A stretch of DNA of 32,000 nucleotides from Acinetobacter wanghuae (GCF_009557235.1 NZ_CP045650.1:1560001-1592000); one strand, 5' to 3'; shown: positions 8,267 to 23,890, counted from the stretch's first letter. Translations and numbers: made by a program. The notes: generated by a model not told the origin, from the sequence alone.

Positions 8267-10258
8267 ATGAGCTTATTAGGTAAGTTAGGTCCAGATGCAA
8301 TTCCTTACGATCCAATCGTATTGGTTACAGTTGCAATGATGATCTTAGGTGGTCTTGCTGTTGTAGCAGGTATTACCTACTTTAAAAAATGGAACTACCT
8401 GTGGACTGAATGGTTCACATCTGTAGACCATAAAAAAATTGGTATTATGTATATCTTCGTATCGATCGTCATGCTTTTGCGTGGTTTCGCCGATGCGATT
8501 ATGATGCGTCTTCAACAGTTCCTTGCAAAAGGTGGTGGCGAAGGTTATTTACACCCAGAACATTACGATCAGATCTTTACTGCCCATGGCGTAATTATGA
8601 TCTTCTTCGTGGCAATGGGTCTTGTTGTAGGTTTGATGAACATCTCTGTACCGCTTCAAATCGGTGCACGTGACGTTGCATTCCCATTATTAAACTCTTT
8701 GAGCTTCTGGTTATTTGCCGGCGCTGCGGGTCTAATGATGGCATCTCTTGCACTTGGTGAATTCGCTGCAACTGGTTGGATGGCTTATCCTCCACTATCA
8801 GGCATTGAATACTCTCCAGGCGTTGGTGTTGATTACTACATTTGGGCACTTCAGGTCTCAGGTCTTGGTACGCTTCTTACTGGTGTTAACTTCTTTGTTA
8901 CCATCATCAAAATGCGTGCTCCTGGCATGAAACTGATGGATATGCCGATTTTCACTTGGACATCTTTATGTACCGCTGTGTTAATCATTGCATCATTCCC
9001 TGTGTTGACTGCAACAATTGCAATGCTTTCTCTTGACCGCTACTTCGGTTTCCATTTCTTCACCAATGACATGGGTGGTAGCCCAATGTTGTATGTGAAC
9101 TTGATTTGGACTTGGGGTCACCCAGAAGTTTATATCTTGGTATTACCAGCATTCGGTATTTACTCAGAAGTGGTTTCAACGTTCTCTCGTAAAGCGTTGT
9201 TCGGTTACAAATCTATGGTGTATGCAACCATCGCGATCACAGTACTTGCGTTCGTGGTATGGGTTCACCATTTCTTCACTATGGGTGCAGGTGCCAACGT
9301 TAACGCGTTCTTCGGTATCATGACCATGGTTATTGCGATTCCTACAGGTGTGAAAATCTTCTCTTGGTTATTCACAATGTACAAAGGTCGCATCAGCTTC
9401 ACCACACCTATGCTTTGGACACTTGGCTTCCTTGTGACTTTCGGTATCGGTGGTTTAACAGGTGTGTTAATGGCAGTTCCACCAGCGGACTTCTTTGGTA
9501 CACAACTCGTTATTCTTGATCGCTCACTTCCATAACGTAATTATTGGTGGTGTAGTGTTTGCAATGTTCGCAGGTATCATCTTCTACTGGCCGAAAATGT
9601 TCGGTTGGAGACTGAATGAAACTTGGGGTAAAGCAGCGTTCTGGTTCTGGTTCTTCGGTTTCTACTTTGCATTCATGCCACTTTATATCCTTTTGGTTTC
9701 ATGGGTATGACACGTCGTTTGAATACATTTGATAACCCTGAATGGGACCCGTATGTAAACATCGCAATGTTTGGTGCTGTTCTGATTCTATTCGGTATTT
9801 TGTGTTTCGTTATGCAAATCGTAGTTGGTTTCTTACAACGCGAACAACGTTTAGATCTTACAGGCGATGCATGGGATGGCCGTACTTTAGAATGGGCAAC
9901 ATCTTCACCTGCTCCGTTCTATAACTTTGCTCACCTTCCTAAGATCAATGGTATTGATACTTTCTGGAATGACAAAGAAGCCGGTATTGCTTATGTAAAA
10001 CCTACGTCTTATGAAGACGTGCATATGCCGACAAATCGTGCAGCGGGTATCGTGATTGGTCTAATTATCACTGTTATGGGCTTTGCATTAATCTGGCACA
10101 TTTGGTGGTTAGCAATTGCAAGTTTCGTTGCTGCAATCATCAGCTTCATCGTTTCTTCGTTCACGAAGAAAGTGGACTACTATGTTCCTGCTGCTGAAGT
10201 TGAGCGTATTGAAAACGAACGCTATGCGATCCTTGAAAAACACTTGAAGAAGGACTAG
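8267..10258 (+). pseudogene. cyoB: Cytochrome bo3 ubiquinol oxidase subunit I, interrupted by two frameshifts into three fragments (8267-9535, 9495-9710, 9701-10258)
   Basis: All three fragments carry consecutive CyoB sequence: ...[15 protein letters not shown] | [19 protein letters not shown]...FMPLYIL | GFMGMTRRL...TLEWATSSPAPFYNF. Fragments 1 and 3 share a reading frame and fragment 2 is shifted by +1. The junctions fall at the T-run 9494-9496 and at TTTTGG 9691-9696. Confidence 0.85.
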
Positions 10259-15198: not shown

Positions 15199-16269
15199 GT
15201 GCGTCAAGCTACAGTTTATATTGACAGTGCAGCACTGCAATATAATTTAAACCGTGTCAAACAACTTGCCCCAACAGCTAAAATCGTCAGCATGGTCAAA
15301 GCCAATGCTTACGGACATGGAGTTAAAGACTGCCTAGCAGCCTTAAAAGACAGCGATGCTTTTGGTGTCGCCTGTTTAGAAGAAGCACTTGAAATTCGTG
15401 ACTTAGGCTATTTACAACCTATTACCCTGATTGAAGGCATTTTTTCATCTGATGAAATGCAAATCGTGATTGATCAAAAGATTGAATGTGTCGTTCATCA
15501 TCAACAGCAACTTGATTGGCTGATGGCGCATAAAGATGCGTATATTGCACAAAATCTAAAAGTTTGGGTCAAACTTAACAGCGGTATGAACCGTCTTGGT
15601 TTCAAAATTCACGAAATTAAAGATGTCATCAACACATTAAAAGCTGAAGGCTTTACCTGTGTTTTGGCGATGCACTTCGCCAATGCTGATGCCGATCACC
15701 CTCTGAATGATGAGCAAATTCGTCAGTTCTTAGAAGTGAAAAATGATTGCGCCCCACTCATGGGCTCATGCTGTAATTCTGCAGCAATTTATAAATATCC
15801 TGAACTGCATTTTGATTATGTACGTCCCGGCATTATGTTATACGGTGCAACGCCTTTTGCAGACCGTTCAGTGGCGGACCTCGATCTAAAACCTGTCATG
15901 ACATTTACAGCAGAAGTGATTGCTTTAAATGATATTCAAGCGGGCGAACATGTCGGTTATGGCTCTACATTTACAGCTGAAAAAGATATGACCTTAGCAA
16001 TTGTATCGATTGGTTATGGCGACGGTTATCCACGTGCCTTCCCGAAACAAAACTATGTCGCAATTAACAGTCAGCAAGTCCGTTTAGTCGGTCGTGTTGC
16101 CATGGATATGATTGCCATTGATGCCACCGGACTTAACCTACAACTTGGTACAGAAGTTGAACTTTGGGGTAAAACACGTCTTGTTGATGATGTGGCTGAA
16201 GCCAACGGTACGATTGGTTATGAACTACTCTGTCGTATGAGTAGTCGTCCAGTACGTATTCCTCAGTAA
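15199..16269 (+). CDS. alr: Alanine racemase
   Basis: 356-aa product with a GTG start 8 nt after AGGAG. It has the PLP-lysine motif VKANAYGHG and the C-terminal YELLCRMSSRPVR. The dnaB-alr adjacency matches E. coli. Confidence 0.93.
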   Translation: MRQATVYIDSAALQYNLNRVKQLAPTAKIVSMVKANAYGHGVKDCLAALKDSDAFGVACLEEALEIRDLGYLQPITLIEGIFSSDEMQIVIDQKIECVVHHQQQLDWLMAHKDAYIAQNLKVWVKLNSGMNRLGFKIHEIKDVINTLKAEGFTCVLAMHFANADADHPLNDEQIRQFLEVKNDCAPLMGSCCNSAAIYKYPELHFDYVRPGIMLYGATPFADRSVADLDLKPVMTFTAEVIALNDIQAGEHVGYGSTFTAEKDMTLAIVSIGYGDGYPRAFPKQNYVAINSQQVRLVGRVAMDMIAIDATGLNLQLGTEVELWGKTRLVDDVAEANGTIGYELLCRMSSRPVRIPQ

Positions 16270-16279
16270 TCATAGAAAC

Positions 16280-16312
16280 AAAAAAAGCCCAACATATGTT
16301 GGGCTTTTTTTT
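16280..16312. terminator. Bidirectional Rho-independent terminator between alr and the BLUF gene
   Basis: AAAAAAAGCCCAACA-TA-TGTTGGGCTTTTTTTT, with A and T tracts on both sides. Confidence 0.85.
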
Positions 16313-16317
16313 GCAAC

Positions 16318-16737
16318 TTATGCGGCTTCTTGCTCTTGTTGTACCAATTCATTCAAAAACAAATCCACATGATGCTGTTCAAATTCGTACGGCTTAAATT
16401 CATCAAAGCCCATACGCTGACACAAAACTTGAATGTCACTACGCTTTGATACGTATTTCATTGACCATTCACTAAACTTTTGTACCTCGATGTCTTTAAT
16501 TTCAAATAAACGAATATTTTCATGACGCGGATCTTTATAGAGTTTTTCAAGTAACATCTTTAATTTTTCAGCATCTCCCTCAAGACATTGAAAAAAATAG
16601 CCATCGGAAAAATACAACACACCATTAATCTGGTTTAAGGTATTGAAATTGCGTGCTTCACTTAAAATATTGGTTAAATCGGACAATAAATCCGCTTTTT
16701 TCGATTTACTTTGACTGACATAACAAAGTTGTTGCAT
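16318..16737 (-). CDS. Short BLUF-domain blue-light photoreceptor (BlsA-like)
   Basis: 139-aa product. The BLUF signature residues sit at the expected spacing: Tyr6 (LCYVSQS), Gln50 (YFFQCLEG), and Trp91/Met93 (SEWSMKY). GAGG lies 5 nt before the ATG. Confidence 0.85.
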   Translation of the reverse strand: MQQLCYVSQSKSKKADLLSDLTNILSEARNFNTLNQINGVLYFSDGYFFQCLEGDAEKLKMLLEKLYKDPRHENIRLFEIKDIEVQKFSEWSMKYVSKRSDIQVLCQRMGFDEFKPYEFEQHHVDLFLNELVQQEQEAA

Positions 16738-16807: not shown

Positions 16808-17542
16808 TTAATTAAAGTATTCTTCTGTCGGGATAGGCAATTCTTGTAAACCTTTTTTCAGCAATTCAGACCATTGTCGACTAATCGTATTGAAATATGA
16901 ATCATCTTCAGAGATACGCTTGCCTTGAGGCAACTCAAGACTATCACGATGATAAACCAGCACATCGAGTGGCATACCCACCGAAACATTCGAACGTAAA
17001 GTGGATGCAAATGAAATCAGCGAACATCTTAAAGCTTCATCTAGCGGCATTTCAAAACTCAAAGCGCGATCTAAAATCGGCTTGCCATATTTACTTTCGC
17101 CAATTTGAAAATACGGCGTATCTCGCGTCGCACAAATAAAATTCCCTTGCGGATAAATATTATAAAGCTGCATATCTTGATCTTTAATTTGTCCACCCAC
17201 CAACAAACTACAATAATAATTGCTTTGTTCCATGGTGTCCGCAGTGACATTTTCAATAACTTTTTTGAGGGTACTTCCAATCAATTCAGCTACATCAAAC
17301 ATGGTGTGTAACGACAGAATATTGGGCTCCTGTCGCAATTCAAGTTGATTTTTAATATGCCCAATCACCGCTTGGGTCGTTGCTAAGTTTCCTGAAGCCT
17401 GAATGACAATGAGGCGCTCTCCCGGAATACCGAAAGTGTATAACTTACGAAAAACAGAGATATGATCCACACCCGCATTGGTACGTGTATCACTAATAAA
17501 GACCATACCTTGCTCTAAGCGAAGCGCACAACAATACGTCAT
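16808..17542 (-). CDS. Anbu-type proteasome-beta-like Ntn peptidase
   Basis: The start was trimmed to the ATG at 17542, with AGGA 9 nt upstream. The product begins MTYCCALRL, with Thr directly after the initiator Met. Asp lies at mature position 17 and Lys at 32, resembling the proteasome beta Thr1/Asp17/Lys33 set. It is the last gene of the ATP-grasp/alpha-E/transglutaminase operon. Confidence 0.8.
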   Translation of the reverse strand: MTYCCALRLEQGMVFISDTRTNAGVDHISVFRKLYTFGIPGERLIVIQASGNLATTQAVIGHIKNQLELRQEPNILSLHTMFDVAELIGSTLKKVIENVTADTMEQSNYYCSLLVGGQIKDQDMQLYNIYPQGNFICATRDTPYFQIGESKYGKPILDRALSFEMPLDEALRCSLISFASTLRSNVSVGMPLDVLVYHRDSLELPQGKRISEDDSYFNTISRQWSELLKKGLQELPIPTEEYFN

Positions 17543-17561
17543 TTTTAACATTCCTTCGAAA

Positions 17562-18341
17562 CTAACAACTGAGTACTTGAACGATGGAATGCATCGATTC
17601 CACACCGCCCTTGTCTCTCACACCGCGTACGGGTGCAACATCCCAATAATCACGACCAATCGCCACATAGACATGTACAGACGGCGTAAACAATTGATTA
17701 CTGACATCAAAACAATACCATGCTTGGTCTATAAATACCTCAGCCCATGCATGACTTGCAAGATGCGATACATTTTGTGCATATAAATATCCAGAGACAT
17801 AACGCGCAGGCAAGCCTAAATATTTACACATCGCAATAAAGATATGACTGTGATCCTGACAGACACCCTGCCTTGACTGAAATGCATCAATCGCTGAACT
17901 CTGCACAGAACTGCTATTCGATATATAAGGAACATGAACCAAAATTGCAGCAGCCAATCCAATCAAGGATTGTCGATTTAACGTTTTTACATGATGGTCA
18001 GCAAAGGCTTTCATCTCGCTATTACATGCTGTGGTGGGTGTCGGCTGTAAAAACAACATCGGATGCAGATTGTCTTGCATGCCGACATCTAAGTCTGTAT
18101 TTAATTCAATAATACCCTGCGCCATGATGGTCAAATGCTGATAAGGCTGACGCTGAGTACTGGTCATCCATGTATTTCCAAAGGCATCTTTCATCATCTG
18201 TTTTTGACCGGGAACACTCACATGCCAATGCTCGACACGCTGATGCTGATTTTGCATTGGTGTCATTTTGATGTACTGAATACTGCTTAAAACGTCCATG
18301 CTATAGCTGTAATGGGTTTGATGATTCACCATCAATTTCAT
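17562..18341 (-). CDS. Transglutaminase-like cysteine protease-fold protein (Bact_transglu_N plus transglutaminase core)
   Basis: 259-aa product with the typical N-terminus MKLMVNHQTHYSYS. Cys/His/Asp candidates sit in GVCQDHSH, SHAWAEV and CFDVS. The start overlaps the alpha-E stop (ATGA). Confidence 0.85.
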   Translation of the reverse strand: MKLMVNHQTHYSYSMDVLSSIQYIKMTPMQNQHQRVEHWHVSVPGQKQMMKDAFGNTWMTSTQRQPYQHLTIMAQGIIELNTDLDVGMQDNLHPMLFLQPTPTTACNSEMKAFADHHVKTLNRQSLIGLAAAILVHVPYISNSSSVQSSAIDAFQSRQGVCQDHSHIFIAMCKYLGLPARYVSGYLYAQNVSHLASHAWAEVFIDQAWYCFDVSNQLFTPSVHVYVAIGRDYWDVAPVRGVRDKGGVESMHSIVQVLSC

Positions 18342-18940
18342 ACTTCAGCCTCAAACATATGATGAATGTAGTCACTAAATTGATAAAAATGCATTAAATC
18401 GGGAGCGGCACGAAGTTTCTGCCAATATTCTTGTAGATTTGACCAACCCATCCCGACTAAGGTATCGACTACATCATCAATTTTAGCCACAGTCACATGC
18501 GATGCTTCATTAAAGCGAAGAGCATGATCGAGTTGCTCTAAACACTGACCTAAACTAAAGAACAAAAATAAATCTGCGGATTCAGCTTCCAATACATCTT
18601 GACAGTCATTCACCACATCACAGATATAACCGGTATTTTGATCGGCATTTCGAATCAGTTGAATAAGTTCTGCATAAGCAGATGCAGATAAAACACCACG
18701 TAGCTCATGAATATTGGCTTTTGCTGTTTGGAATTGTTGCGTAAATGACGCAGGTTGCGTGGTATCTAATACCAAGGCATTTAATGAACTTGCATCAAAT
18801 GCGGGTAAACAAAAGGCATGCGCATAAGCAATAGCATCTTCATCTTTAGCAAAAGGAAAATGAGCACATAAAAACTGTGTACGTGCCAAATAACGACCTA
18901 ACCAAAAAATATGCTGTGCATTAGAGTTTAATAAAACCAT
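18338..18940 (-). CDS. Alpha-E domain protein (DUF403), short variant
   Basis: 200-aa product whose N-terminus (NAQHIFWLGRYLARTQ) matches the characteristic alpha-E start (aeslyWlGRYlERae). AAGGA lies 7 nt upstream of the ATG. It sits between the ATP-grasp and transglutaminase genes. Confidence 0.75.
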   Translation of the reverse strand: MVLLNSNAQHIFWLGRYLARTQFLCAHFPFAKDEDAIAYAHAFCLPAFDASSLNALVLDTTQPASFTQQFQTAKANIHELRGVLSASAYAELIQLIRNADQNTGYICDVVNDCQDVLEAESADLFLFFSLGQCLEQLDHALRFNEASHVTVAKIDDVVDTLVGMGWSNLQEYWQKLRAAPDLMHFYQFSDYIHHMFEAEV

Positions 18941-18961
18941 AACAGAGTCCTTTTGGTATTT

Positions 18962-20515
18962 TTATGAATGTAAATTATCGATGATCCATGTGTCTTTGAT
19001 GCCACCACCTTGGGACGAGTTGACCACTAATGAACCTGCCTGCATCGCCACACGAGTCAGACCACCCGGTACAATCTCGGTACGATACGGTGAACTCAGC
19101 ACAAAGGGACGCAAATCAATATGACGTTCTGCTACACCATGTGCACTGATGGTTGGGCAAACTGAAAGCTCCAAGGTTGGCTGTGCAATATAGAGCTCTG
19201 GAGAAGCAATGATTTTCTCTCTAAAGGCTTCAATTTGCTGTGCGGAGGCTTGCGGACCGATCAACATACCGTAACCCCCTGAGCCTTGCGCCTCTTTCAC
19301 CACAAGCTGTCCAAGATGATCTAAGACATATTCCAAATCTTGGGCTTCTCGGCACTGGTAAGTCGGCACATTTTTTAAAATGGCTTTTTCACCTAAGTAG
19401 AATTCAATCATTTTATCCACGTAAGGATAAATCGATTTGTCATCAGCGACACCTGTACCGGGTGCATTGGCAATGACCACGTTGTGTTGCAGATATACTG
19501 ACATTAAGCCTGGCACACCTAAGGTACTGTCAGGCTTAAAGCATAATGGATCAAGATAAGCATCATCGACACGTCTATAAATAACATCAACTTGTTGGCG
19601 ACCGCGTATGGTTTTTACATAAACTCGAGAATTTTCAACAAATAAATCACGTGATGTTACCAAAGGTACATCCATCTCTTTGGCAAGAAACGCATGTTCA
19701 TAGTAAGCACTATTAAAACGACCCGGCGTCAATACGACAATAAATGGCTTATCGACATACGCATTTTCAGTCAAAATCTCTTTGAGTAATTGTGGATATT
19801 GTTCAATGCCAGAAATATGTGTTTGCTCAAATAATTTTGGCATTAATTTTTGGCTAATTTTGCGGCTTTCAAGCATATAAGATACACCCGACGGTGTCCT
19901 TAAATTATCCTCAAGCACATAGCACTCACCTTTGGCATCGCGAATAATATCGATCCCGCTGATTTGGCTATAAATGCTGCCCTTTAAGCTATGCTGATAC
20001 ATATGGGGTTGATACGCTTCATGCGTCAGCACTTGCAGTTCAGGCACAATATTGGCTTTTAAAATGTCTTGTGAATGATAAATATCATGTAAGAATAAAT
20101 TGAGTGCGCGCACACGTTGTGAACACCCCAAAGCAATAGTATCCCACTGCTTACGTGCCATAACACGTGGAATCACATCAAAAGGAATCGTTCGCTCAGT
20201 GCCTTCCTCATCACCATAAACCGTAAAGGTAATACCTTCATATAAGAAATGATCTTTTGCTGCCTGATTCAGCGCCTTTAATTCCTCTAAAGTATGCTGT
20301 GACAACCATTCTTCTATTTTCTGCCCTGCCTGACCGAGCATCGCTTGATCATCACGCATTTCATTAAAAAATAAAGATGAAAACTGCTGAAACAAGACAT
20401 GTGACTTTTTCGTGGTCGAATGAACACGATCCGTTGAATCCGTAAAATGATGTTCAGTTTTATTAAAGTTATCAATCGTTGGCGTGATATTTGTATCCAG
20501 GTTCTCTTTAAGCAT
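18962..20515 (-). CDS. Circularly permuted type-2 ATP-grasp amidoligase (DUF404/DUF407, COG2308-like)
   Basis: The start was trimmed to the ATG at 20515, with GAGG 5 nt upstream. Conserved blocks are GITFTVYGDEEGTERTIPFDVIPRV, RVRALNLFLHDIY, VLEDNLRTPSGVSYMLE and GVADDKSIYPYV. Confidence 0.85.
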   Translation of the reverse strand: MLKENLDTNITPTIDNFNKTEHHFTDSTDRVHSTTKKSHVLFQQFSSLFFNEMRDDQAMLGQAGQKIEEWLSQHTLEELKALNQAAKDHFLYEGITFTVYGDEEGTERTIPFDVIPRVMARKQWDTIALGCSQRVRALNLFLHDIYHSQDILKANIVPELQVLTHEAYQPHMYQHSLKGSIYSQISGIDIIRDAKGECYVLEDNLRTPSGVSYMLESRKISQKLMPKLFEQTHISGIEQYPQLLKEILTENAYVDKPFIVVLTPGRFNSAYYEHAFLAKEMDVPLVTSRDLFVENSRVYVKTIRGRQQVDVIYRRVDDAYLDPLCFKPDSTLGVPGLMSVYLQHNVVIANAPGTGVADDKSIYPYVDKMIEFYLGEKAILKNVPTYQCREAQDLEYVLDHLGQLVVKEAQGSGGYGMLIGPQASAQQIEAFREKIIASPELYIAQPTLELSVCPTISAHGVAERHIDLRPFVLSSPYRTEIVPGGLTRVAMQAGSLVVNSSQGGGIKDTWIIDNLHS

Positions 20516-20746
20516 ACAAACCTCAGTTGTTATAAATTTGTGTTTTAAGTACAGCAATATTTGTGCCACCTAAAACAAGCACCTCACTCTATTAGGCAGT
20601 GCCCTTGTCTACAACTCAATGTAGTTTTTGCTTCAACATGTATCAAAATATAGCAATGTGACCGCAATAAACCTTGCTAAAGCACTGAAGTTTTTTTATT
20701 GTGGTGAACATTGATGTTTCACTTCCTTCATTGTTAGCTTTAAATT

Positions 20747-21745
20747 ATGTCATCACAAGAAAAAGAAACCTCCAACAGCCTGTATCGCCAATGGCAAATT
20801 TTGTCTCGTTTAAGTACGGGCAAATGGATGGGTACACGTGAATTACAAGAAATTTTGGTTCGTGAAGGCGTGGATATTAGTTTGCGTACCATCCAACGTG
20901 ATTTAAATCAAATCGCGCAGCGTTTTCCTATTGAAAGCAGTAAGACTACTCCACAAGGTTGGCGTTGGCGTTCTGATGCACCCATTCAAAGCTTGCCGCA
21001 TATGACCAGTTCTCAAGCGGTGACCTTTATGATGGTGGAAGAACATCTTAAGCATTTATTACCACCTAGTCTGATTGATGAAATGAACCCGTGGTTCGAT
21101 TTAGCACGACGTAGCCTATCGACCCAAAATAATGTGCGTCAATGGATCAATCGCGTGCGTATTGTACCTGCCAATCAACCTTTGATTCCTCCGGTGGTGG
21201 AACGTGCTGCTCAGCAAGCAATTTATGAAGGCTTATTACAAGACAAACAACTTGAATGTATTTATCAAGGTCGCGGACAACATAGTGAAGAGAAAACCTA
21301 TATTCTAAACCCTTTGGCTTTAGTCCAAAAAGGATCGATTATTTATTTGGTATGCACGCGTCACGATCGTTCAGATATCCAAACCTTTGCCTTACACCGC
21401 TTTAAATCCGCCACAGTGTTAAATACACGCGCATTGCATCCGGTGAATTTTGATATTGATGAATATATTGATTCAGGTGCTTTGGGCTTCCGTGTCGACT
21501 TCAATCAGCCTACTGAAAATATCACCTTAAAATTACATATGAGTGAAGCCGATGCTCACTATTTTGAGGAAAGCCAACTGAGTCTTGATCAATCTATTGA
21601 GAAATTAGAGGATGGTATGGCACTCATTACCGCAACTGTACCCTATACCTCTCAACTCATTTGGTGGCTCAGAAGCTTTGGTAAAAAAATTCGACACATT
21701 GAACCTGAACAAGTTGCAAATATGGTGAATCAAGTCGATGAATAA
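20747..21745 (+). CDS. HTH-WYL-WCX transcriptional regulator (YafY/PafBC/CapW-like architecture)
   Basis: 332-aa product. It has an N-terminal winged HTH (LYRQWQILSRL...TRELQEIL...SLRTIQRDLNQI). A central WYL-like beta-rich block follows (YILNPLALVQKGSIIYLVCTRHDRSDIQTFALHRFKSATVL), then a C-terminal extension. It is divergent from the ATP-grasp operon. Confidence 0.8.
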   Translation: MSSQEKETSNSLYRQWQILSRLSTGKWMGTRELQEILVREGVDISLRTIQRDLNQIAQRFPIESSKTTPQGWRWRSDAPIQSLPHMTSSQAVTFMMVEEHLKHLLPPSLIDEMNPWFDLARRSLSTQNNVRQWINRVRIVPANQPLIPPVVERAAQQAIYEGLLQDKQLECIYQGRGQHSEEKTYILNPLALVQKGSIIYLVCTRHDRSDIQTFALHRFKSATVLNTRALHPVNFDIDEYIDSGALGFRVDFNQPTENITLKLHMSEADAHYFEESQLSLDQSIEKLEDGMALITATVPYTSQLIWWLRSFGKKIRHIEPEQVANMVNQVDE

Positions 21746-22219: not shown

Positions 22220-23890
22220 ATGGCAAACCCAGCTCAGCTTACACGGCATAAATTACTTAACACATTCTTCTCTCGGCATTCCGTTTGGTTTGCCTGCATT
22301 TTTATTGCTTTGCTTTTTACTTTATTTCACGTCGGCTATTCGCCACGTTATATCTACCATTTTCTGCCTGAAACCTTAGTCAATTCACTGTGGATTATTA
22401 CGGGTATATTAAGTCTTGTTGGTCTATATGATGTTCTACAAAATAAACATTCAATTTTAAAGAACTACCCAATTATGGGACATTTTCGCTATATTTTTGA
22501 AGAGTTTAGACCCGAAATTCGTCAGTATTTCATTGAATCAGATCAGGATGCCTTACCTTTTTCGCGTATGCAGCGTAGCCTCGTTTACCAACGTGCCAAA
22601 AATGAAAATGCCGATAAGCCCTTTGGTTCGATTATTGATGTTTACCAACATGACTATAAATTTGTAAGTCATTCTATTACCCCTGCAAAACCTGCCAATA
22701 TTGATACCTTTCGGATTCAAATTGGTAATGATCAATGTCGCCAACCTTACAGTTCATCCATTTTAAATATCTCTGCCATGAGCTTCGGGAGTTTAAGTGC
22801 GAATGCGATTCGCGCCTTGAATTTAGGCGCAAAAATGGGCGGTTTTTATCATGATACGGGTGAAGGTAGTATCAGTCCGTATCATTTAGAAAATGGTGGG
22901 GATATCGTCTGGGAACTTGGCAGCGGTTATTTTGGTTGCCGTACGCTTGATGGACAGTTTGATCCCGTTAAATTTGCAGAACAAGCCGCATTACCGCAAG
23001 TAAAAATGATTGAACTAAAAATGTCTCAAGGTGCTAAACCCGGACATGGTGGAATTTTACCTAAAGACAAAATATCGGAAGAAATTTCACAAATTCGTGG
23101 TGTCAGCCGAGAGGAAGACTGTATTTCACCCTCAAGTCATCCAGCATTTAATACCCCATTAGAAATGATGCATTTTATTCAGCAGCTACGTGAACTCTCA
23201 AATGGTAAACCCGTCGGCTTTAAATTATGTCTGGGGCAACCGTGGCAATTTATGAGTATTGTCAAAGCAATGCTTGAAACCAACATTGTGCCCGATTTTA
23301 TTGTAGTGGATGGCTCTGAAGGGGGTACAGGTGCAGCGCCCATTGAACTGATTGATTTTGTAGGCACGCCGCTTCGTGAAGGTTTGCTCTTTGTGCATAA
23401 TACCCTTATTGGTGCAGGTTTACGCGATCAGATCAAACTTGGTGCAAGTGGTAAAATTATTAGTGCATTCGATATTGCCAGTACGCTTGCGATTGGTGCG
23501 GACTGGGTCAATTCTGCACGTGGCTTTATGTTTGCTGTCGGCTGTATTCAAGCGCAAAGCTGTCATACCAACCAATGCCCTGTGGGTCTCGCGACCCAAG
23601 ATGTTGATCGCCAAAAAGCGGTTCATGTTCCAACCAAGGCTGAACGCGTGTTTAACTTCCATAAAAATACCTTAGGTGCGCTGTCTGAGTTGATCGCTGC
23701 CGCGGGGGTTGAACACCCTTCACAAATTAAAGCGCATCATTTGGCACAGCGAATTAACAGCCATGAAATTAAAAATTATGCACAGTTACACTTCTGGTTA
23801 AAGGATAAAGAATTATTGAATTGTGAAAATATTGATGAAGATAATTTTTATTATCGAATGTGGAGCTTAGCCCAAGCCGATAAATTCTAA
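22220..23890 (+). CDS. Membrane-anchored FMN-binding glutamate synthase family protein (GltB FMN-domain homologue, COG0069-like)
   Basis: 556-aa product with two N-terminal hydrophobic helices. Conserved blocks are ISAMSFGSLSANAIRALN, IELKMSQGAKPGHGGILP and VVDGSEGGTGAAP. Confidence 0.85.
   Translation: MANPAQLTRHKLLNTFFSRHSVWFACIFIALLFTLFHVGYSPRYIYHFLPETLVNSLWIITGILSLVGLYDVLQNKHSILKNYPIMGHFRYIFEEFRPEIRQYFIESDQDALPFSRMQRSLVYQRAKNENADKPFGSIIDVYQHDYKFVSHSITPAKPANIDTFRIQIGNDQCRQPYSSSILNISAMSFGSLSANAIRALNLGAKMGGFYHDTGEGSISPYHLENGGDIVWELGSGYFGCRTLDGQFDPVKFAEQAALPQVKMIELKMSQGAKPGHGGILPKDKISEEISQIRGVSREEDCISPSSHPAFNTPLEMMHFIQQLRELSNGKPVGFKLCLGQPWQFMSIVKAMLETNIVPDFIVVDGSEGGTGAAPIELIDFVGTPLREGLLFVHNTLIGAGLRDQIKLGASGKIISAFDIASTLAIGADWVNSARGFMFAVGCIQAQSCHTNQCPVGLATQDVDRQKAVHVPTKAERVFNFHKNTLGALSELIAAAGVEHPSQIKAHHLAQRINSHEIKNYAQLHFWLKDKELLNCENIDEDNFYYRMWSLAQADKF

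Follow-up and report, generated by a model that had tools for sequence, protein, structure and literature searches.

An Anbu operon with a short alpha-E protein and a sigma-54-type promoter in Acinetobacter wanghuae

Layout and identity of the operon

We analyzed a stretch of 32,000 nucleotides from Acinetobacter wanghuae (GCF_009557235.1 NZ_CP045650.1:1560001-1592000), here called the window, in which positions 16808-20515 hold four minus-strand open reading frames (ORFs) for an ATP-grasp ligase, an alpha-E protein, a transglutaminase-like protein and the proteasome-like protease Anbu, in that order. The ligase gene (18962-20515, minus strand, 517 amino acids) starts with ATG and is separated by a 21-nucleotide gap (18941-18961) from the alpha-E gene (18338-18940, minus strand, 200 amino acids), the stop codon of which overlaps the start of the transglutaminase-like gene (17562-18341, minus strand, 259 amino acids) in a four-nucleotide ATGA at 18338-18341. 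After a further gap of 19 nucleotides (17543-17561) follows the Anbu gene (16808-17542, minus strand, 244 amino acids), with the N-terminus MTYCC. The spacing is exactly that given in an earlier description of this DNA (hereafter the original prediction), and the ligase, transglutaminase and peptidase motifs quoted there are all present. Shine-Dalgarno-like sequences (GAGG or AAGGA) lie 6-10 nucleotides upstream of all four starts. A longer ligase ORF beginning at GTG 20569 was rejected because this codon falls inside the promoter described below, and longer ORFs from GTG 17605 and ATG 17551 were rejected because these starts are not conserved in other species.

All four proteins exceed the gathering cut-offs of their Pfam profiles, in agreement with the families to which the original prediction had assigned them, and their order is that of the published operon kind. 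No specific NCBIfam model matches any of the four proteins, and the NCBI product names present are circularly permuted type 2 ATP-grasp protein, alpha-E domain-containing protein, transglutaminase family protein and proteasome-type protease. The operon has a host-like guanine-plus-cytosine (GC) content and sits in core synteny, the order being ribosomal protein genes, dnaB, an alanine racemase gene, the operon and a WYL-type regulator gene, and its coupled junctions are retained across genera. Its alpha-E protein shows 99% identity to the A. wanghuae one. We consider it practically certain that the locus is a single, genuine and complete operon of the known Anbu-1 type, and an ordinary one. 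The operon kind is reportedly that of Valas and Bourne (2008) and Iyer (2009), treated also by Fuchs (2017); it has already been published and annotated in databases, and the Acinetobacter copy is a further member. The features specific to this lineage are a short alpha-E protein, an extended ligase N-terminus, the WYL neighbor and a clear sigma-54 promoter.

The same operon arrangement was found in A. lwoffii, A. schindleri, A. shaoyimingii, A. chinensis, A. johnsonii and A. baumannii, and the four-gene order recurs in Klebsiella, Saliniramus, Lonepinella, Vitreoscilla and Psychrobacter. The neighborhood survey that had been proposed as a check on the operon thus found the arrangement kept in seven Acinetobacter species, and the order kept in Psychrobacter as well. 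A scan of a genome collection with Anbu returned almost only members of the A. lwoffii group, plus a single locus from Saliniramus, and wider taxa were sampled through plasmid records and look-ups of exact proteins. The Pseudomonas operon (PA1733; PP_2685-PP_2688) resembles that of the window in its four families, their order and their tight packing, and differs in having an alpha-E protein of about 310 rather than 200 amino acids. The window protein is without the C-terminal third and the first-motif Glu, and the window has in addition about 50 extra residues at the ligase N-terminus and a fixed WYL neighbor.

Two of the comparison loci have surroundings of their own. The Klebsiella pneumoniae operon is of the canonical kind (alpha-E of 309 amino acids) and lies on a conjugative 173-kb IncFII plasmid (locus L033, 3810-7747), where it adjoins trehalase and sugar-transport genes. 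In Saliniramus a gene for a RadC-like JAB-domain protein lies directly upstream of the canonical operon on the same strand (locus L029, 1888-2577).

Protease and transglutaminase-like protein

Anbu matches the Pfam Proteasome profile (5.6e-8) and aligns over nearly its full length with the solved structures 5LOX, the Anbu of Pseudomonas aeruginosa (5.7e-87), and 5NYW (1.4e-79). The protein starts with Met-Thr and has no propeptide. The original prediction held that the nucleophilic Thr follows directly on the initiator Met; in accord with this, the crystallized 5LOX chain begins at the Thr aligned with query residue 2, and the start ATG-ACN-TAY-TG is conserved, together with its ribosome-binding site, in ten loci of alpha- and gammaproteobacteria. 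The proposed catalytic partners also held up, Thr1, Asp17 and Lys32 being retained together in 117 of 118 close homologues with a Met-Thr start and in 10 loci across the alpha- and gammaproteobacteria.

The Met-Thr start, the residues T1/D17/K32 and an Anbu-1-like S1 pocket are shared with the P. aeruginosa enzyme (Pa-Anbu). The window pocket reads T20-F30-A48-L52-T55 and that of Pa-Anbu T20-F30-T48-L52-S55, so that three of five positions are identical and two carry conservative changes (Ala/Thr at positions 48 and 55 in the window, Thr/Ser in Pa-Anbu). Most Acinetobacter Anbu proteins have T-F-T-L-T at these positions. With no basic residues in it, the pocket of the window protein is predicted to be of the amphiphilic Anbu-1 kind and not the basic Anbu-2 kind.

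Published work describes Anbu as a ring-like assembly of multiple subunits which, unlike the 20S proteasome, lacks alpha subunits and takes the shape of an open dodecamer built from dimers (PMC5666114). Fuchs and colleagues showed in 2017 that it binds peptide-aldehyde and epoxyketone proteasome inhibitors and favored a protease role; they read its architecture as one for processive proteolysis, which in their view made a peptide-synthesis function less likely (PMC5666114).

The 259-residue protein encoded upstream of Anbu matches the Pfam profiles Bact_transglu_N (PF08379, 3.5e-15) and Transglut_core (PF01841, 5.1e-20). The Cys, His and Asp candidates named by the original prediction correspond to C161, H197 and D212, which align with those of the solved structure 3ISR (1.8e-17) and are retained in nine of nine taxa. 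Its sequence marks the protein as a putative transglutaminase-like cysteine hydrolase with a Cys-His-Asp triad.

A short alpha-E protein and its ligase

The alpha-E protein passes its Pfam cut-off (PF04168, 4e-9; 37 bits against a threshold of 20.8), covering only positions 5-172 of the 294 in the profile. In a profile-profile alignment (hhalign), residues 1-171 of the short form match residues 1-206 of the canonical form with a probability of 98.7% and an E-value of 3.6e-16. Missing is the C-terminal third, about 110 amino acids, including the counterpart of the invariant canonical P238-R239; the canonical proteins of Saliniramus and Klebsiella have 313 and 309 residues, respectively. The family assignment made earlier was thus borne out, and the assumption of a typical length was not, the protein falling about 110 amino acids below the family norm.

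The motifs have changed as well. The first of the two "ER" motifs of the family reads RYL[T/A/S]R, with Glu in none of the 112 pattern-matching Acinetobacter sequences, and the second keeps its Glu and has mostly lost its Arg, with 82 of 114 pattern-matching sequences reading E-Q there. Short forms from Psychrobacter retain RYSER. Because the length remains between 198 and 204 residues throughout Acinetobacter, even though identity falls to about 41% in A. baumannii, we do not regard the gene as a pseudogene. When 1.84 billion representative proteins were searched with a profile, only 80 relatives emerged, with canonical alpha-E proteins marginal near E = 1e-4. Outside Acinetobacter, members with a named source are those of Psychrobacter, Lonepinella koalarum and Vitreoscilla, and each of these lies within a complete four-gene Anbu operon. 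A confident AlphaFold model of the short protein is all-helical (predicted local distance difference test score, pLDDT, 88.5), and Foldseek found no solved structural relative of this model. We class these proteins, by their sequences, as a divergent short subfamily and as atypical members of PF04168. A form of 200 residues offers a practical handle, in that it marks which parts of an alpha-E protein are dispensable.

The ligase covers the complete CP_ATPgrasp_2 profile (PF14403, positions 1-374 of 374, 5.6e-151). The closest solved ligase is 3N6X, which was deposited as a putative glutathionylspermidine synthase and aligns with query residues 66-512 (1.6e-168). Preceding this region is an Acinetobacter-specific extension of about 50 amino acids (20365-20515, minus strand), in which alignment of the N-termini reveals a conserved MLKExxDTN tip followed by a variable, poorly conserved middle or linker; the extension is missing in 3N6X and in the Saliniramus, Vitreoscilla and Lonepinella enzymes. 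Ligases of Acinetobacter are mostly 510-528 residues long, with a few of up to 555, compared with 474-485 in Vitreoscilla and Lonepinella. An AlphaFold model of the ligase (mean pLDDT 48, from a shallow alignment confined to the genus) was discarded.

The ligase and alpha-E genes share a reading frame, with one TAA and seven codons between them (18938-18964, minus strand). In Psychrobacter sp. I-STPA10 the two are a single gene of 765 codons (locus L038, 5102-7399) with a low-complexity, Asn- and Ser-rich linker, and a second fused ligase-alpha-E fragment occurs in metagenomic data. These natural fusions support the view that the two proteins function together as one unit, in which alpha-E is presumed to be the partner subunit of the ligase, and they should also ease biochemical work. 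The alpha-E part of the Psychrobacter gene is also annotated separately at NCBI, as a protein of 218 amino acids.

Promoter and nitrogen control

The operon and the WYL gene diverge from an intergenic control region (20516-20746, unstranded) in which alignments show conserved blocks. It includes a sigma-54 type -24/-12 promoter, TGGCACAAATATTGCT (20553-20568, minus strand), which reads TGGCAC-N5-TTGCT, an exact match to the consensus TGGCAC-N5-TTGCW, and lies on the operon strand 37 nucleotides upstream of the ligase ATG, with a transcript start predicted from the motif near 20542. It is the sole match in the window at either zero or one mismatch, where 0.06 exact matches would be expected. 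Both TGGCA and ATTGC are invariant in six aligned Acinetobacter species, against a mean intergenic identity of 67%, and an exact copy of the motif in A. baumannii brings the total to seven species. On this basis the Acinetobacter operon is likely driven by sigma-54.

Published expression data connect the same module with nitrogen. When nitrogen is limiting, or when the nitrogen source is a poor one or nitrate, the Pseudomonas putida genes PP_2685-2688 rise 4-37 fold, and they were assigned to NtrBC (PMC7801951, PMC8050072). An ATP-grasp/alpha-E/transglutaminase cluster of Burkholderia cenocepacia depends on sigma-54, and loss of ntrC lowers its expression 6-9 fold (PMC5491218). In a 2025 survey COG3484 was enriched in the sigma-54 regulons predicted for alpha-, beta- and gammaproteobacteria (PMC12316311). 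The Burkholderia cluster, I35_5080-5083, is comparable with the window operon in its ligase, alpha-E and transglutaminase-like core and in its dependence on sigma-54 and NtrC; it differs in having no reported Anbu and a second large transglutaminase-like protein (PMC5491218), and its alpha-E protein is presumed to be canonical.

We infer control by nitrogen limitation and NtrC in Acinetobacter from the promoter together with these Pseudomonas and Burkholderia data on the same module, and the operon is probably switched on by nitrogen shortage. The sigma-54 promoter thereby supplies a predicted induction signal that matches the nitrogen control seen in other genera, a practical handle on an operon that occurs across the genus Acinetobacter and also in A. 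baumannii, a species with straightforward genetics.

Proposed function and alternatives

The reading that we prefer, with a probability of roughly 45%, is that the sigma-54 operon encodes a ligase, a hydrolase and a protease that turn over proteins or peptides during nitrogen starvation. NtrC, most likely the enhancer-binding protein, would activate the promoter under nitrogen limitation, and the ATP-grasp and alpha-E proteins would together serve as a single ligase, making an amide or isopeptide bond at the expense of ATP, perhaps placing an amino-acid-like mark on carboxylates or amines of proteins or peptides. The transglutaminase-like enzyme, through its Cys-His-Asp residues, may trim, reverse or transfer the bond made by the ligase. 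Removal of the initiator Met would expose Thr1 of Anbu, which could then degrade unfolded polypeptides without ATP. The net outcome would be the recycling of amino-acid nitrogen, as has been proposed for the Pup-proteasome of mycobacteria under nitrogen starvation (PMC8223512). The more specific suggestion that the chemistry is one of tagging followed by degradation is made tentatively, and we put it at clearly less than even odds.

The Pup-proteasome is similar in logic, combining a ligase that makes amide bonds with ATP, an enzyme able to undo the bond and a protease with a Thr1 nucleophile, and its locus likewise encodes a WYL-type regulator, PafBC (PMC8223512). The window differs from it in that the ligase has the ATP-grasp fold rather than that of PafA and Dop, and in that neither a gene for a Pup-like tag nor an AAA unfoldase occurs among the annotated neighbors. 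The resemblance is best taken as an analogy and not as membership.

Several observations weigh against the nitrogen-starvation turnover module. Neither an NtrC dyad nor a conserved inverted repeat was recognized in the control region, and the sigma-54 motif is absent from the short-alpha-E operons of Lonepinella, Vitreoscilla and Psychrobacter, so that control by sigma-54 is not universal. Candidate motifs at the Klebsiella and Saliniramus operons carry two mismatches, a level common by chance. As the original prediction had noted, there is no small tag gene: the control region has no conserved small ORF, and only tiny unconserved ORFs occur in or beside the operon. No unfoldase ATPase was found among the annotated neighbors of the operon. 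In the experiments of Fuchs and colleagues, expression together with the remaining proteins of the operon yielded no altered form of Anbu, and the operon was non-essential without stress (PMC5666114). In the literature searched, no substrate, tag or ligation product has been assigned to the operon type. Finally, the three-gene core exists without Anbu in Burkholderia, and Anbu exists by itself in Azospirillum; because both occur, the ligase and the protease need not share a substrate.

The statement in the original prediction that no substrate, product, tag or phenotype had been assigned thus stands for substrate and product in the literature searched, and fails for phenotype. A P. aeruginosa transposon mutant in PA1732 showed less quorum-sensing reporter activity and poor fitness in biofilms with tobramycin (PMC3197603), from which it follows that the module has a phenotype, and there is also the nitrogen induction described above. 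Rediscovery of the operon is unsurprising. Anbu and its partners have been known since 2008-2009 and crystallized since 2017, and they are among the better-known orphan systems of bacterial proteolysis.

The closest solved ligase raises the main rival to protein turnover. The bifunctional enzyme GspS joins an ATP-dependent amide-forming ligase domain to a papain-like cysteine amidase working in the opposite direction, and 3N6X is annotated as a glutathionylspermidine synthase. By analogy, the operon could encode a small-molecule or short-peptide pathway in which the ligase conjugates a nitrogen metabolite and the Cys-His-Asp enzyme and Anbu hydrolyze the conjugate or a small peptide, as in glutathionylspermidine synthesis and hydrolysis or in catabolism by gamma-glutamylation, for the purpose of scavenging or buffering nitrogen. 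Unlike in GspS, the activities in the window reside on separate proteins, which are joined by an alpha-E partner and a proteasome-like protease. The NtrC regulons that hold the module are dominated by the scavenging of urea, nitrate and polyamines, which fits such a pathway, as do the missing tag gene and unfoldase and the peptide-synthesis proposal of Iyer et al. (2009) as cited by a later paper (PMC5666114). The ring of Anbu, its proteasome-like active sites and S1 pockets and its binding of inhibitors argue against it (PMC5666114). We consider this pathway possible and worth weighing, on balance unlikely.

A direct assay bears on the same question to a limited extent. The proteins concerned are Rv2411c and Rv2567 of Mycobacterium tuberculosis, which, after Iyer et al. 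(2009), we take to represent ATP-grasp/alpha-E/transglutaminase clusters without Anbu. According to a 2026 preprint these mycobacterial homologues of the ligase were negative for ligation of gamma-aminobutyric acid (GABA) to trehalose, a result that counts against a small-molecule role for that single substrate pair only. A second 2026 preprint, on a pneumococcal N-terminal nucleophile (Ntn) protease, merely cites Anbu as a relative. Among the recent preprints that mention Anbu, Rv2411c or Rv2567, none gives the module a function.

The solo Anbu gene lies on a 753-kb replicon of Azospirillum brasilense (locus L034, 7001-7735) without the other three genes and among genes for an ATP-binding cassette (ABC) transporter, amidase, amidohydrolase and hydroxyisourate hydrolase. 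The amidase, amidohydrolase and transporter neighbors would suit a small-molecule pathway. The gene standing alone suits a different explanation, that Anbu is an independent, ATP-independent protease for damaged or unfolded proteins which is clustered with an unrelated trio of genes only for the sake of common control under starvation. The B. cenocepacia trio, which is accompanied by a second large transglutaminase-like protein and for which no Anbu is reported, points the same way, as does the unchanged state of Anbu upon co-expression (PMC5666114). Co-regulation without a shared substrate nonetheless accounts poorly for a four-gene order that persists, with junctions still tight or overlapping, from alpha- to gammaproteobacteria, and for the retention of Anbu in four of four short-alpha-E lineages examined. 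We regard it as decidedly unlikely, and retain the nitrogen-starvation turnover module as the preferred reading.

The adjoining WYL regulator

Divergent from the operon lies a gene for a helix-turn-helix (HTH)-WYL-WCX regulator (20747-21745, plus strand, 332 amino acids; Pfam WYL 2.2e-13, WCX 7.6e-10). It adjoins the operon in all seven Acinetobacter species, even where its other neighbor changes, and at 79-90% it is more conserved than the operon proteins themselves; in five other genera examined it is not beside the operon. Its domain type is that of PafBC, and WYL regulators such as PafBC, which is encoded in the Pup-proteasome locus, sense nucleic-acid signals (PMC8223512). By analogy, the protein is a candidate local regulator of the operon.

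If it were the principal regulator, the Acinetobacter module might respond to damage or phage under WYL control instead of to nitrogen starvation. In favor of this are the fixed position and high conservation of the gene in the seven species, the nucleic-acid signals sensed by PafBC-type proteins and the place of PafBC in the Pup-proteasome locus (PMC8223512), and the listing of WYL models as defense-associated in PADLOC. Not one of the operon's four proteins, however, hits a PADLOC defense model, and the WYL neighbor alone matches generic WYL models. The conserved core synteny (DnaB, alanine racemase), the host-like GC content and the absence of the regulator beside the operon in the five other genera also speak against a damage or phage response, and the promoter is of the sigma-54 type, which a WYL protein alone cannot activate. 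We therefore consider this explanation very improbable, and nitrogen-starvation turnover continues to describe the operon better.

A more speculative extension of the preferred reading combines the features specific to the lineage. The short-alpha-E operons of Moraxellaceae, Lonepinella and Vitreoscilla might represent a distinct version with a minimal ligase, fused to alpha-E in Psychrobacter, and with an alpha-E that has shed the Glu of the canonical ER motif and the C-terminal third; in Acinetobacter this version would have been wired to sigma-54 and a PafBC-like WYL sensor and would be a Gram-negative counterpart of the Pup-proteasome. Such a system would mark and degrade proteins without a tag or by self-tagging when triggered by nitrogen shortage or damage. 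We think this doubtful; if it is true, the Psychrobacter fusion and the tractable Acinetobacter species would be systems in which to find the missing substrate.

Other features of the locus and the window

Seventy nucleotides downstream of Anbu, on the same strand and with no terminator in between, lies a gene for a BLUF blue-light sensor (16318-16737, minus strand, 139 amino acids; Pfam BLUF 7.5e-26). A. wanghuae, A. lwoffii, A. schindleri and A. shaoyimingii carry this gene, A. chinensis, A. johnsonii and A. baumannii lack it, and its identity between species is only 57%. Because it occurs in only four of seven species, we regard it as a variable passenger that may share the transcript of the operon and does not belong to the core of the system.

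The only strong terminator, downstream of both the operon and the BLUF gene, is a bidirectional intrinsic one (16280-16311, unstranded) with a 14-bp stem and A and T runs on both sides, and it is shared with the convergent alanine racemase gene. An Rfam Trp_leader match at 16209-16312 (plus strand) scored 25.9 bits against a gathering threshold of 41 and coincides with this terminator and with the last part of the alanine racemase gene. The match is almost certainly spurious.

Beyond the WYL gene, positions 22220-23890 (plus strand) encode a 556-residue protein with a glutamate-synthase flavin mononucleotide (FMN) domain (PF01645). Such a gene occupies this place in A. wanghuae, A. lwoffii and A. 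johnsonii, and a major facilitator superfamily (MFS) transporter gene occupies it in A. shaoyimingii and A. chinensis.

Elsewhere in the window, cyoB, the gene for subunit I of cytochrome bo oxidase (8267-10258, plus strand), is split across three reading frames. The piece at 8267-9535 corresponds to positions 1-336 of the COX1 profile, that at 9495-9707 continues with positions 336-401 in another frame, and that at 9701-10258 is back in the first frame. Because both breaks fall within T-rich runs, the gene either is a pseudogene or has been split by two sequencing errors that compensate each other.

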